Origin: Patescibacteria group bacterium
GTDB lineage: Bacteria; Patescibacteriota; Minisyncoccia; Phycocordibacterales; JAKFXT01
Length of the DNA: 62,095 nucleotides
Reading direction: 5' to 3'
Assembly (NCBI GenBank): GCA_021731245.1
Contig: JAKFXT010000005.1
Location: forward strand, 1 to 62,095
Shown here: positions 56,346-57,486 of the stretch, in pieces
How positions within the stretch are numbered: position 1 is the first letter of the stretch
Layout: the number at the start of each line of letters is the position of its first letter
Translations under genes and position numbers: made by a program
Notes under the pieces: model-generated
Databases searched by the model: none
What the model was told of the DNA's origin: nothing
Seen by the model: the letters and a program-made list of their open reading frames with translations, nothing else

Positions 56346-56900
56346 CGTGAGACAGGTTGGTTCTCTATCTGCTGTAGGCGTTGATTCTTGAGAAGACTTG
56401 CTCCTAGTACGAGAGGACCGGAGCGAACTGACCACTGGTCTACCAGTTGTCCTGCCAAGGGCATTGCTGGGTAGCTATGTCGGGAATAGATAACCTCTGA
56501 AAGCATCTAAGAGGGAAGCTAACTTCAAGATTAGGAATCATTATGAGGCTCGTAAGAGATTATTACGTTGATAGGCTTTAGGTGTAAGTGTCGTAAGGCA
56601 TTGAGCCGAGAAGTACTAATTCGCCCAATCCTATGAGGATTTTTGAAAATCGTTTTTACTTTCATACATCGAAATGGTGTATGGAAGATTGAGTGGGATA
56701 TTACTCAATGATACTTGTTAAACCTGCAAAATAATTTAAAGACCCCTAAATTTGTGTGTTTCGTAGAGGGAACTCTCGTCGCCCGTACCTTTCACGGGCC
56801 TTGGCTGTACGGAGAGTAGGCTCGTGCGAGAGAGGGAGGTTTTCATAACTCCCGTTCGCATCTTCTACGAAACACATAAATAAAAAATTCATTTTTTAGT

Positions 56901-57029
56901 GTTGGTGTTTTGACGCAGGGGGCCCGCCTTACAGGCGCAGTACACTTTTCGCATTTTGATTACAAAATGCTCAAAGTTTTGCGAAGCTCCATGTGTTCGC
57001 TTCGCAACCTCTTCCATTCTGACAGAGAA
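56901..57029 (+). pseudogene. 5S rRNA 5'-half relic split by an 82-nt structured insert
   Basis: GTTGGTGTTTTGACGCAGGGGGCC and ACCTCTTCCATTCTGACAGAGAA match the first 55 nt of the intact 5S. They are separated by 56925..57006. No 3' half is present. Confidence 0.6.
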
Positions 57030-57060
57030 TAAAAATGATTATAAAAAATTGAATCTTAAG

Positions 57061-57168
57061 TTCTGGTGATTTGACGCAGCGGCCACACCTCTTCCCATTC
57101 CGAACAGAGAAGTTAAGCGCTGTAGTACCAATGATACTCGTAAGGGGAAAGTAGGTAGTTGCCAGAAC
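57061..57168 (+). rRNA. rrf: 5S rRNA
   Basis: Contains CCCATTCCGAACAGAGAAGTTAAGC (loop C/helix III consensus). The termini TTCTGGTG and GCCAGAAC pair. Confidence 0.85.
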
Positions 57169-57186
57169 TTAATATTCAATTTTTAG

Positions 57187-57312
57187 ATGATACTCTTATG
57201 GGGTGAGGCGCGAACACTTGGAGCGCCGCAAGGCCGGAGCGCGACGGCGCGAGATAGGGCTGAAAGATTTTCTTGCAAGAAAATACTTTTGGCAGTAGGT
57301 AGACGCCAGCAC
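57187..57312 (+). pseudogene. 5S 3'-domain relic carrying element copy S1 (57234..57312)
   Basis: ATGATACTCTTATGGGG and AGTAGGTAGACGCCAGCAC mimic 5S nt 57131..57168. Between them lies about 95 nt containing CCGGAG, hairpin GCGC-GACG-GCGC, GAGATAGGG and an AT-rich hairpin. Confidence 0.65.
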
Positions 57313-57333
57313 TAAGCAATGAATTTTTCTGTA

Positions 57334-57457
57334 AAATACTCTTTAGGGGTTGCCAAGCTGTGGAACAGCTTGGCAAAATCGGAGCGCGACGGCGCGAGAT
57401 AGGGCTGAAAGATTTTTCAGCAGAAAAATACTTTTGGCAGTAGGTAGTCGCCAGAAC
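57334..57457 (+). pseudogene. second 5S 3'-domain relic carrying element copy S2 (57380..57457)
   Basis: ATACTCTTTAGGGG ... AGTAGGTAGTCGCCAGAAC. The core is near-identical to S1, but a different upstream hairpin is present (TTGCCAAGCTG/CAGCTTGGCAA). Confidence 0.65.
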
Positions 57458-57486
57458 ATAGAATTTAATTTTCCGTTCCTTCAATT

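Follow-up and report, generated by a model that had tools for sequence, protein, structure and literature searches.

MITEs (Correia, RUP and ERIC), REP/BIME sequences mobilized by RAYT transposases, and the palindromes of IS200/IS605 are short, non-coding, multi-copy, rich in hairpins and co-transcribed with their neighbors. The elements described here, which recur in a 62-kb window (the whole stretch of DNA that was analyzed), share these traits, and as with MITEs and REP sequences their movement would likely be effected in trans. Their strand-specific hairpins with a bulged base also recall the single-stranded DNA ends of IS200/IS605. Unlike MITEs and insertion sequences, however, they have neither constant terminal inverted repeats nor a fixed target duplication: no terminal inverted repeat is shared among the copies, and flank repeats vary from 0 to at least 24 nt. 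They differ further from MITEs and REP sequences in that no cognate transposase was found in the window or neighborhoods searched, and in that they target defined positions within tRNA and 5S genes, in partial duplicates of the target. A REP palindrome, which goes with a RAYT gene, spans some 35 nt and has a conserved tetranucleotide; our element exceeds it in size and comprises several domains, and the 62-kb window holds no Y1/HUH transposase.

Class C group II introns insert after terminator hairpins, the group III mini-introns of Euglena plastids are about 100 nt long, and group II introns are bounded by GUGYG at the 5' end and AY at the 3' end. With group II introns our elements share precise insertion into genes; many copies read GUGAG...GAC, some follow terminator-like hairpins as class C introns do, and an antisense segment pairs with the upstream 'exon' in the manner of exon- and intron-binding sites. 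The 3' hairpin is similar in shape to domain V, whose AGC or CGC triad contains a G.U pair, but does not match it, having one bulged base rather than two. It starts with a lower helix that has a conserved G.U within CGC; a bulge on the 3' side separates this from an upper helix capped by a small loop. In contrast to group II introns, the element is 70-100 nt long and lacks a six-domain ribozyme, its fourth base is A and not a pyrimidine, and no reverse transcriptase partner was found in the window or neighborhoods searched; Intron_gpII and D1-D4 had no Rfam match in the window, nor in 56600-57700 at E <= 10. Because the interrupted genes are fragments, splicing would restore nothing, unlike the splicing of group II introns.

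A displaced copy of the tRNA 3' end, running from the T loop and including the trailer, follows the intact tRNA at several loci, sometimes in arrays, as with integrative elements that target tRNA genes. Such direct repeats were found at the window's tRNA-Val and, with lengths of 18-24 nt, at loci L184, L135, L147 and L190, yet the neighboring sequence holds no integrase, what takes the place of the 'island' is a structured, RNA-like sequence some 100 nt long, and the element also occurs in 5S, in 5' fragments and after ribosomal-protein genes. Like SINEs and retrozymes, it is small, non-autonomous, associated with tRNA or 5S sequences and carried on highly expressed transcription units, and its tandem units (L190) could give unit-length RNAs as in retrozymes; it differs from both in having no tail, no reverse transcriptase in the window or neighborhoods searched and no known ribozyme motif. 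Since the tRNA and 5S pieces flank the element, on both sides or only 3', and form no promoter-bearing head, the architecture is not that of a SINE. The rRNA intervening sequences are likewise structured additions, some 100 nt long, that occur sporadically at particular sites in rRNA and are co-transcribed, and our elements too are probably cut out. However, intervening sequences interrupt functional rRNA, extend a helix and are removed by RNase III, whereas here only non-functional fragments are interrupted, and the same element also lies at tRNAs and mRNAs.

Much of bacterial diversity lies within the candidate phyla radiation (CPR), whose members have genomes of very small size. In a streamlined genome it is unexpected to find hundreds of bases spent on a structured element and on broken gene copies, which here surround the 5S gene, several tRNAs, rplL and a putative rplK. 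Our leading explanation, which we hold with belief and doubt in about equal measure, is that these sequences are a new family of site-specific, non-autonomous insertion elements that land in the loops of stable-RNA genes and persist only in partial duplicates of them.

The 5S rRNA array

The array contains one intact, uninterrupted 5S rRNA gene at 57062-57167 (+ strand), the only one called by Rfam (RF00001, 72.6 bits against a gathering score of 38, E = 3.5e-15), with a match over the full model length, positions 1-120. It is flanked by a 5'-half copy upstream (module 1, 56901-57029) and by two 3'-domain copies downstream (module 3, 57187-57312, and module 4, 57333-57457), and all three partial copies are split by inserts of 82-90 nt. 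Modules 1, 3 and 4 had no RF00001 match in 56600-57700 even at E <= 10, which identifies them as fragments. The Rfam call and alignments to the intact gene agree with the sequence-only reading of this stretch, in which four 5S-related modules, one of them intact, had been recognized.

Module 1 comprises 24 nt of 5S (56901-56924), an 82-nt insert (56925-57006) and 23 nt of 5S (57007-57029), and the three hairpins previously described in the insert of this 5'-half copy were all recovered. Alignment to the intact gene shows that the left piece (+) holds the 5' strand of helix I, loop A and the 5' strand of helix II; together with its upstream flank, it has 35 of 44 identities to the intact 5S and its flank. 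The right piece (+) holds helix III and loop C (25 of 26 identities to 57087-57116) and lacks the 3' strand of helix II, an absence that led us to reject a spliced outer 5S gene. Two related element types, A-type and D-type, occupy the array, and the module 1 insert, in the loop B region, is a D-type element on the - strand, antisense to the 5S. By alignment, its reverse complement matches over its full length the D-type copies of the window's rplK locus and of loci L152, L123, L174, L182 and L158, and minus-strand BLAST matches fall at 14943-14961, 15032-15054 and 57210-57224. A comparison with the rRNA encoded in the window showed no similarity.

Modules 3 and 4 are built alike: 17 nt of 5S come first, then an insert of 89-90 nt, then 19 nt from the 5S 3' end with a copy of the 3' flank after it. 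Their spacing of 145-146 nt matches the units of about 146 nt seen earlier. The left piece of module 3 (57187-57203, +; 15 of 17 identities to 57131-57147) holds the 5' strand of helix IV and an intact helix V hairpin; its A-type element lies at 57204-57293 (+; covariance model R1, 78.6 bits, E = 5.9e-20, at 57227-57294), and the right piece (57294-57328, +; 27 of 35 identities to 57150-57184) holds the 3' strands of loop E and helix I and the flank copy. The corresponding parts of module 4 are a left piece at 57333-57349 (+; 12 of 14 identities to 57134-57147), an A-type element at 57350-57438 (+; R1, 80.4 bits, E = 1.9e-20, at 57372-57439) and a right piece with flank copy at 57439-57473 (+; 29 of 34 identities). 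The terminal loop had been thought to be replaced by about 95 nt, a length that was overestimated; the terminal hairpin CUC-UUAU-GGG is in fact intact, and the insert follows on its 3' side, where it takes the place of two A residues between GGGG and AGUAGG.

The module 3 element starts with UGAG, followed by a first hairpin with the loop GAACACUUGGA, which is also found in L054, L077, L089 and other loci, and then by the conserved core. The core of the module 4 element is identical to it, with an identical 37-mer in common where 0 matches are expected by chance, while its first hairpin (inverted repeat I11), a 12-bp UUGCCAAGCUGU/ACAGCUUGGCAA stem, is unrelated to that of module 3, as the earlier observation of near-identical cores with different first hairpins would have it. 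The idea that the inserts form one element family holds for modules 3 and 4, but the insert of module 1 is of the related second type and on the opposite strand.

The flanks and helix I of the intact 5S form a 23-bp stem (5' arm 57044-57066, +; partner 57162-57184, inverted repeat I3) that is 96% complementary, with 25 of 26 nt paired over 26 nt, and that forms without any element. The upstream flank and helix I 5' strand of module 1 (56883-56908, +; inverted repeat I2) pair with the 3' end of module 3 (57303-57328) at 25 of 26 positions. This helix has five double compensatory differences from the intact-5S stem, and each of its arms pairs with the intact 5S arms at just 20 of 26. Module 4's right piece is nearer to the present 5S than module 3's, and pairs with the 5' arm of the intact gene at 23 of 26. 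Module 1, with its antisense D-type element, and module 3, with its A-type element, would most likely represent opposite ends of an older 5S allele, and module 4 would derive from the present one.

The last gene of the operon is a tRNA at 57487-57593 (+; RF00005, 42.6 bits; missed by ARAGORN), whose predicted fold has an anticodon arm enlarged by an insert of about 33 nt. The sole terminator-like site in 56500-57800 follows at 57597-57614 (+). As no such site precedes it, the 5S modules and the downstream tRNA are probably co-transcribed, and the element RNA is thus probably made at the level of rRNA.

The element family and where it occurs

A-type elements consist of a variable first hairpin, a (C)AAG linker, a 3-bp ACC/GGU stem that closes GGA-GCGC-GACG-GCGC-GA, the sequence GGGG, and a 35-nt hairpin. 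In this hairpin a G.U pair is conserved, one A is bulged and the loop reads CAGCAG; it usually ends in GUGAC. D-type elements have the same 5' half, then GAAAGGUGUAC and a hairpin with the loop CUGUAAG. Copies with a self-contained first hairpin start with (G)UGAG, with A at position 4, and end with GUGAC, although module 4 lacks the GUGAG start. Across 67 distinct cores, the long hairpin shows compensatory changes in 14 of its 15 pairs and 97% of cells are paired; none of 500 shuffles reached the observed pairing and covariation values, and shifting the structures by 1-3 columns lowered pairing to 33-55%. The G.U pair is retained in 66 of the 67 copies and its C-G neighbors in most, with a one-base bulge, and the triad around it reads UGA in the window's 5S copies. 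With model R1, the two 5S inserts reach 80 and 79 bits (E about 1e-20). The model finds 118 matches at E <= 0.001 in 0.54 Mb of related loci and, separately, at least six in the 62-kb window.

The window carries at least eight elements: two at tRNA-Val, one each at tRNA-His, rplK and rplL, and the three of the 5S array. That the element of modules 3 and 4 also occurs at the 3' end of tRNA-Val, as had been proposed, is supported by an A-type copy at 5945-6014 (+) that model R1 scores at 68.7 (about 69) bits. On either side of it stands the same 20 nt of the tRNA 3' end, as a direct repeat (5897-5916 and 6014-6033), and in tandem with this copy lies a variant A-type copy with a long first core hairpin (6071-6152, +; R1, 26.4 bits, E = 1.2e-5). 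A D-type element with approximate bounds 9150-9265 (+; D-type signature at 9227) is downstream of tRNA-His (9014-9088). A long composite of two D-type modules and A-type parts (14883-15123, +) directly follows the stop codon of a gene that its C-terminal sequence alone leads us to name, putatively, as rplK (L11); R1 matches fall at 14985-15044 and 15091-15123, and D-type signatures at 14940 and 15068. After rplL, identified by Pfam, lies an A-type element (48578-48671, +; R1, 58.2 bits) whose first hairpin (48578-48606) forms between the end of the coding sequence, stop codon included, and a segment antisense to these last codons, and whose short core hairpin covaries (GCCC/GGGC). Nested copies exist in the family as well as composite ones.

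The core is carried by about 85 public loci, all apparently from CPR (Patescibacteria) bacteria. At least 11 genome matches are true, with 35-53% GC, and among the genome matches listed most are labelled Saccharibacteria, Parcubacteria or Paceibacteria and a few just 'bacterium'. The pattern of the first genome scan was too GC-rich, and about 106 of at least 120 matches were chance hits in high-GC genomes, so this taxonomic breadth is a lower bound; of the metagenome loci, about 74 of 75 are true matches. Saccharibacteria have copies at rplL as well as at 5S. A search of 2.9 million viral contigs did not find the core. Rfam, at gathering scores and permissive E-values, returned no match to the elements in the array, the rplK copy, L190 or the long L159 RNA region, and self-cleaving ribozymes and other Rfam families gave no relevant match at E <= 5-10 in the array, the rplK copy and L190. 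An HDV-like or hammerhead fold was rejected for unsuitable topology and motifs, an integron attC site because its core sites are absent, and a retroviral-type primer-binding site because the repeat is in the tRNA sense and extends into the trailer. We found no description of the element in the literature searched, including a search with the core sequence as text, and the family is apparently undescribed so far; a paper on CPR ribosomes reported 5S genes merely as shortened.

The expectation that the element targets stable RNAs stands, in that 39 of 41 copies within 350 nt of a tRNA share its orientation, but a restriction to their 3' portions is contradicted by module 1, L182 and many tRNA loci, where the element lies within a 5' fragment upstream of an intact gene. 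Such a restriction is also too narrow for copies that follow the stop codons of rplL and rplK. The layout of the array is shared by L007, L152 and L182, where a 5S gene is flanked by fragments of that genome's own 5S with inserts at the same one or two 5S positions. The proteins of L152 and L182 are just 44-64% identical, and across lineages the same 5S sites hold different element types and orientations.

A tRNA-Ile 3' fragment in L174 holds a D-type element, and the orthologous site in L146 is empty, with no target duplication at the filled site; neighboring proteins of the two loci are 62-71% identical. This is the one clean filled/empty pair found, and it supports mobility directly. No transposase, integrase, reverse transcriptase or HUH/Y1 enzyme was detected by Pfam among 40 ORFs of the window. 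Clustering of 415 neighboring ORFs revealed no recurrent mobility gene within 4 kb of the 85 loci, no tnpB or iscB gene lies near the element, and Rfam HEARO had no match. If the element is mobile, it moves without a recognizable enzyme nearby. The sole endonucleases among the ORFs scanned were LAGLIDADG proteins.

Insertion, function and other explanations

On our leading explanation, the array would be a record of repeated insertions by small, structured, non-autonomous elements whose ends are defined (host RG / UGAG ... GUGAC / host) and which enter a small number of sites in highly expressed stable-RNA genes. In the folded RNA, these sites would fall in loops or where helices join. Those of 5S would be the region of loop B and the helix V/loop E junction, between GGGG and AAAGUAGG, and those of tRNA the D arm, anticodon loop and T loop. 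Further sites would lie just past the stop codons of rplL and rplK. As insertion into the only functional copy would be lethal, elements would persist only in partial gene duplicates, which keep the target site and may thus act as safe landing pads, with 5' fragments upstream of the intact gene and 3' fragments downstream. The fold would be under purifying selection, presumably for harmless excision from the precursor and/or for spread. In favor of this account are the covarying fold, the tie to stable-RNA genes, the recurrence of the 5S layout, the filled/empty pair, the nested and composite copies, the module 1/module 3 helix and the terminator-free array. The family and its fold, the contexts of the copies, the recurrent 5S sites, the single filled/empty site and the lack of a terminator within the array are shown by the data. 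Mobility as the general cause, selection against insertions in the intact gene, how the duplications arose, and whether the intermediate is RNA or single-stranded DNA are steps that we infer. Several observations count against insertion. No mobilizing enzyme was found in the window or recurrently near the 85 loci, and just one clean filled/empty pair supports the account. The copies within this genome differ and so indicate no recent burst, and the origin of the partial duplications is left unexplained. The tRNA-Ile architecture is 83% identical between L146 and L174 while the neighboring coding DNA is 68% identical, which speaks for constraint. Downstream of tRNAs, many copies come with antisense sequence and with a further copy, in sense orientation, of the gene 3' end, a pattern that simple insertion does not explain.

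The main rival is that the modules are functional parts of the precursor and the element a protein-binding or ligand-sensing RNA domain that directs how co-transcribed tRNA, 5S and ribosomal-protein mRNAs are processed, how stable they are or how their folding is regulated. Gene fragments would then supply closing helices or competing strands, and pairing of the antisense segment with the real gene 3' end or with the downstream copy would act as a switch. We regard this as possible but doubtful. It would account for the strong covariation and the strand specificity that the G.U pair gives to the fold, for the co-orientation of elements with highly expressed genes and their place inside an operon, for the conservation of the tRNA-Ile architecture above its flanking coding DNA, and for the retention of the module 1/module 3 helix; the 5S fragments, moreover, start exactly at the strand that pairs with the fragment across the element. 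Copies linked to rplL in distant lineages share a hairpin sequence and have a first hairpin that covaries with the last codons, which looks like long vertical retention and therefore like function, and rplK copies recur in distant lineages too, with a first hairpin that likewise covaries. About a dozen copies that lack their own hairpin have a closing stem of 7-13 bp, but a helix test confines this stem to one subclass, and over all copies flank pairing exceeds that of controls by little, with mean best helices of 5.7 and 5.25 nt, respectively. An exact-match test, which was too strict, found flank duplication in 9 of 77 copies and an antisense segment in 5 of 77. A precursor function also fits poorly with the differing element types and orientations at the same 5S sites, the site filled in one species and empty in another, downstream sense copies that span from identical to decayed, the terminator-like hairpin between tRNA and element at several loci, and the element-free stem of the intact 5S.

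Less probable by far is that the element is a guide-RNA scaffold for a protein encoded elsewhere, comparable to TnpB/Cas12-type RNAs with a scaffold and a 3' guide or to RNAs that read both DNA strands; the guides would be the 18-24 nt after GUGAC and/or the antisense segment, directed at the neighboring gene. A conserved scaffold is indeed followed by a variable segment identical to a nearby gene 3' end (20 nt at tRNA-Val, 24 nt at L184, 21-24 nt at L135 and L190, 18 nt at L080), and in these same copies 7-13 nt of antisense precede the core. However, no nuclease or recombinase gene is associated, every move would require a new guide, self-targeting of essential genes would be harmful, the 'guide' of L190 and L184 is the start of the next tandem unit, and copies with self-contained hairpins have plain gene sequence on both sides, as simple insertion would leave. 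Quite improbable, too, is an origin of the fragments as attachment-site scars of phage or island integrases, with the core a leftover of integrated elements. Direct repeats from the T loop through the tRNA 3' end into the trailer mark a classic integrase sublocation, and several displaced ends occur in arrays (modules 3 and 4; L190), but core and repeat always abut at a fixed point, the insert measures just 90-150 nt in all and contains no integrase remnant, viral contigs lack the core, copies also lie in 5' fragments and after coding genes, and in the 5S modules the element is inside the fragment rather than next to a displaced end that is itself unbroken. The richness of the region in repeats, on a window that is a single metagenomic contig, speaks for an assembly artefact or a plain tandem 5S duplication with unrelated filler; yet this is very unlikely, because the modules have diverged (85% identity, different first hairpins) and three independent assemblies from other lineages have the same layout, and the inserts belong to a family at E of about 1e-20.

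Implications

The insertion account has a bolder form, which we consider rather unlikely: a new bacterial class of mobile RNA, small and structured, that is produced abundantly because it rides on rRNA, tRNA and ribosomal-protein transcripts and that integrates at exposed loops of abundant folded RNAs or of their single-stranded DNA. Integration might proceed by the RNA's own catalysis or via a putative host or CPR-specific protein, and antisense and sense target copies would be templated during the event. If true, prokaryotes would have their own equivalent of SINE- or retrozyme-like elements; alternatively, insertion would be templated by the target, and such a system would turn stable-RNA loci into nested arrays made up of genes, pseudogenes and elements. 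If the element is mobile at all, the lack of a recognizable enzyme nearby and the use of the same 5S and tRNA positions in distant lineages would point to an undescribed insertion mechanism, possibly mediated by RNA or single-stranded DNA, which could account for odd tRNA and rRNA gene structures in CPR bacteria. If it is instead functional, it would be a new RNA domain that acts in cis to control how the translation apparatus matures. The covariance model can serve as an annotation marker with which such fragments should less often be taken for pseudogenes or errors of assembly, and it may account for contigs that break at tRNAs. As to close relatives of the contig, exact look-ups of RplL and of a downstream 620-aa protein gave zero matches, and a homologue search recovered just the window's own protein and one relative with 38% identity.

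The 5S array and the tail of the rRNA operon

Alignment to the intact 5S rRNA gene (module 2; 57062-57167, 72.6 bits) places four 5S-related modules where the sequence-only reading had put them. In module 1, a 24-nt left piece made up of the helix I 5' strand, loop A and the helix II 5' strand (56901-56924) is separated by an 82-nt insert (56925-57006) from a 23-nt right piece carrying helix III and loop C (57007-57029); with its upstream flank, the module matches the intact 5S at 35/44 and 25/26 positions. Modules 3 and 4, spaced 145-146 nt apart, each open with 17 nt corresponding to the helix IV 5' strand and an intact helix V hairpin, and close with the last 19 nt of the 5S plus a copy, about 16 nt long, of its 3' flank. 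Their inserts, of 90 nt (57204-57293) and 89 nt (57350-57438), were previously taken to replace the 5S terminal loop, and this has to be corrected: they sit immediately on the 3' side of the terminal hairpin, flanked by GGGG and AGUAGG. The proposal that the two inserts combine a near-identical core with different first hairpins holds, as both contain an identical 37-mer where chance would yield none.

The surrounding operon is itself rich in inserts. The 23S rRNA gene (51989-56639) spans 4.65 kb against a 2.9-kb model, owing to a group I intron (55031-55317, 54 bits) and probably further inserts, and it contains a LAGLIDADG endonuclease ORF (54412-54918). Between the 23S 3' end and module 1 lies a very stable 130-nt stem-loop structure with an 18-bp closing stem (56745-56885; -60 kcal/mol, z = -6.3), which could be a processing stem or a further element type. 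The last gene of the operon is a tRNA (57487-57593; Rfam, 42.6 bits) that ARAGORN missed. Its acceptor, D and T arms are good, and about 33 extra nucleotides, which may be a small intron or an element remnant, form a hairpin in an extended anticodon arm. The sole terminator-like site in 56500-57800 follows at 57597-57614.

Two related element types

The inserts of modules 3 and 4 carry the core of what we call the A-type element. Its fold was derived from an alignment of 67 distinct cores: a 3-bp stem, ACC/GGU, closes GGA-GCGC-GACG-GCGC-GA and is followed by GGGG and then by a long hairpin of 15 continuous base pairs with a bulged A and the loop CAGCAG. Pairing holds in 97% of the cells of the long hairpin, and both sides have changed at 14/15 of its pairs. 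These values are not equalled in any of 500 shuffles, and sliding the structure by 1-3 columns lowers pairing to 33-55%. A single G.U pair persists in 66/67 sequences, which identifies the functional strand as the one co-oriented with the host gene. Of the six copies with A at the 3' position, four show AUC or GUC with GAU in the 3-bp stem in place of ACC/GGU. The short GCGC hairpin is uninformative in this alignment because the search pattern fixed GCGC, but the rplL copy of the window shows covariation there (GCCC/GGGC).

R1, the covariance model of this core, finds modules 4 (57372-57439, 80 bits) and 3 (57227-57294, 79 bits) and, as claimed earlier for tRNA-Val, a copy after that gene (5945-6014, 69 bits), all on the + strand. 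Further + strand matches lie after rplL (48602-48671, 58 bits), in a variant in tandem with the tRNA-Val copy (6071-6152, 26 bits) and in a split variant after rplK (14985-15123, 24 and 31.5 bits). An AT-rich stretch at 37500-37528 gives a weak partial match to the long hairpin (19 bits, E = 0.001) and is probably just a similar hairpin. Elsewhere, when one genome per species was scanned with a first pattern, most matches were chance ones in high-GC genomes, alongside at least 11 true ones at 35-53% GC, most of them labelled Saccharibacteria, Parcubacteria or Paceibacteria. A stricter pattern yielded 75 metagenome loci, nearly all true, and no match among 2.9 million viral contigs; in related loci, R1 gives 118 matches at E <= 0.001.

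The insert of module 1 belongs to a related second type, the D-type, and lies on the strand opposite to the A-type inserts. Reverse-complemented, it can be aligned over its full length with copies at the rplK locus of the window and in five public loci of other lineages (L152, L123, L174, L182 and L158), all of which share a first hairpin, GCAAGACCUU, GAGC-hairpin-GCGAAAGGUGUAC and a hairpin with the loop CUGUAAG. In 0.6 Mb of related loci there are 13 instances of the D-type signature, against 0 in shuffled sequence. Another copy follows tRNA-His at about 9227, in a tRNA cluster where a free-standing LAGLIDADG_3 ORF (8103-8840) ends 5 nt before tRNA-Leu (8846-8932). Long element forms join A-type and D-type parts. 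Neither type matches an Rfam family, even at permissive thresholds, and neither is described in the literature searched.

Host sites and the case for mobility

The elements recur in three contexts: after a gene, inside a 5' gene fragment, and at the 5S. Near tRNAs they are strongly oriented, with 39/41 copies lying within 350 nt of an intact tRNA on the tRNA's strand. In the first context the element stands downstream of an intact gene and is followed by a copy of that gene's 3' end, which for tRNAs begins in the T loop, includes the tRNA 3' end and extends into the trailer. At tRNA-Val this copy measures 20 nt, and in L135, L147, L184 and L190 18-24 nt; in L190 and L184 it is the start of another tandem unit. 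About a dozen after-gene copies have a 7-13 nt antisense segment just before the core, and at rplL (Pfam-confirmed) and putative rplK the pairing partner of this segment is the stop codon together with the codons just before it. In the second context a tRNA 5' fragment precedes the intact tRNA and holds the element in its D arm or anticodon loop, with element ends of the form host RG / UGAG ... GUGAC / host. The contigs of L110 and L121 end a few bases past an element inserted in a tRNA D loop, and element-bearing loci may commonly break short-read assemblies. A-type elements also occur, at positions that differ between genomes, in a long non-coding, GC-rich and apparently structured region starting (U)GUGCGCGCACRGGGYGGG (L159, 6900-7460, - strand; L173, 2040-2760; also L125, L126, L127, L132, L160 and L194). 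This region has no Rfam match at E <= 1 and may be an unannotated large RNA gene that they also target.

At the 5S, the layout of the window has counterparts in distant lineages. L007 (Saccharibacteria) has an intact 5S, a terminator and then a 5S 3'-domain copy split at the same position as in the window, whose last 21 nt and flank are identical to the L007 gene. L152 carries an antisense D-type element in the loop B region of a 5' half-copy and an A-type element at GGGG/AAAG in a 3' copy. At the same two sites L182, with only 44-64% protein identity to L152, has a sense A-type and a sense D-type element, respectively. The 5S fragments resemble their own genome's 5S in every case, so the layout has arisen repeatedly and does not go back to a single inheritance.

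The tRNA-Ile loci of L146 and L174, two related species (neighbouring protein 62-71% identical, DNA about 68%), are built alike from a 5' fragment that holds an A-type element, a D-type element in antisense, the intact tRNA and a 3' fragment. Inside this 3' fragment L174 carries an extra D-type element, and the orthologous L146 site is uninterrupted; a few bases are replaced and a target duplication is absent. Nested and composite copies, and the different element types at the same 5S sites, also point to mobility. Against it stand the divergence of the copies in this genome from one another and the outcome of the search for a mobilising gene that the sequence-only reading suggested: there is no transposase, integrase or reverse transcriptase among the 40 window ORFs, and none recurs within 4 kb of 85 loci. 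At these tRNA-Ile loci (L146, 1930-2110; L174, 2930-3110) the intact tRNA is enclosed by a 19-bp stem from its own flanks, which continues into the antisense D-type helices and so leaves the working tRNA capping a long composite hairpin, within a tRNA copy that is older and split.

The best-supported reading, to which we give about an even chance, is that the inserts are a new family of small, non-autonomous, site-specific insertion elements whose single-strand fold is under selection. Their targets would be the 3' ends of rplL and rplK and, in stable-RNA genes with very high expression, a small number of structurally exposed positions. Hits in a sole functional copy would be lost, so elements would accumulate in partial duplicates that keep the target site, and arrays of gene fragment plus element would build up around the intact gene within its transcription unit. 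The main rival gives the modules a function in the precursors, as parts that act in processing or regulation. It is favoured by how deeply the copies at rplL and rplK recur, with first hairpins that covary, and by the conserved tRNA-Ile architecture; we consider it rather unlikely. Guide RNAs, integrase scars and an artefactual array are less likely explanations.

Single features of the element are familiar from other systems. It is short, structured and multi-copy like MITE and REP elements; it recalls group II and group III introns in the GUGAG...GAC ends of many copies, in a hairpin of domain V-like shape and in its pairing with upstream sequence; it shares duplicated 3' ends with tRNA-targeting islands and a tie to tRNA and 5S with SINEs and retrozymes, and it has single features in common with rRNA intervening sequences. 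Every known family that could be tested has at least one defining feature that the element lacks, and we therefore rate it, judged from 62 kb of genome, as outside known kinds.

History of the 5S locus

Taken together with its upstream flank, the helix I strand of module 1 pairs at 25/26 positions with that of module 3 and its downstream flank, and the two arms of the intact 5S pair with each other equally well (25/26). Cross-combinations pair at only 20/26, so five double compensatory changes set the two stems apart. In helix I, modules 1 and 3 resemble the L152 5S. This similarity and the arm pairing argue that these two modules represent opposite ends of another 5S allele, older or foreign, which to judge from this one contig now encloses the working gene. 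Module 4, whose 3' end fits the 5' arm of the intact 5S at 23/26 positions, appears to originate from the present allele. Upstream of the array, CAATGATACTTGT at 56706-56718 matches the 5S helix IV region at 12/13 positions, which is within the chance range, and may be an additional 5S relic.
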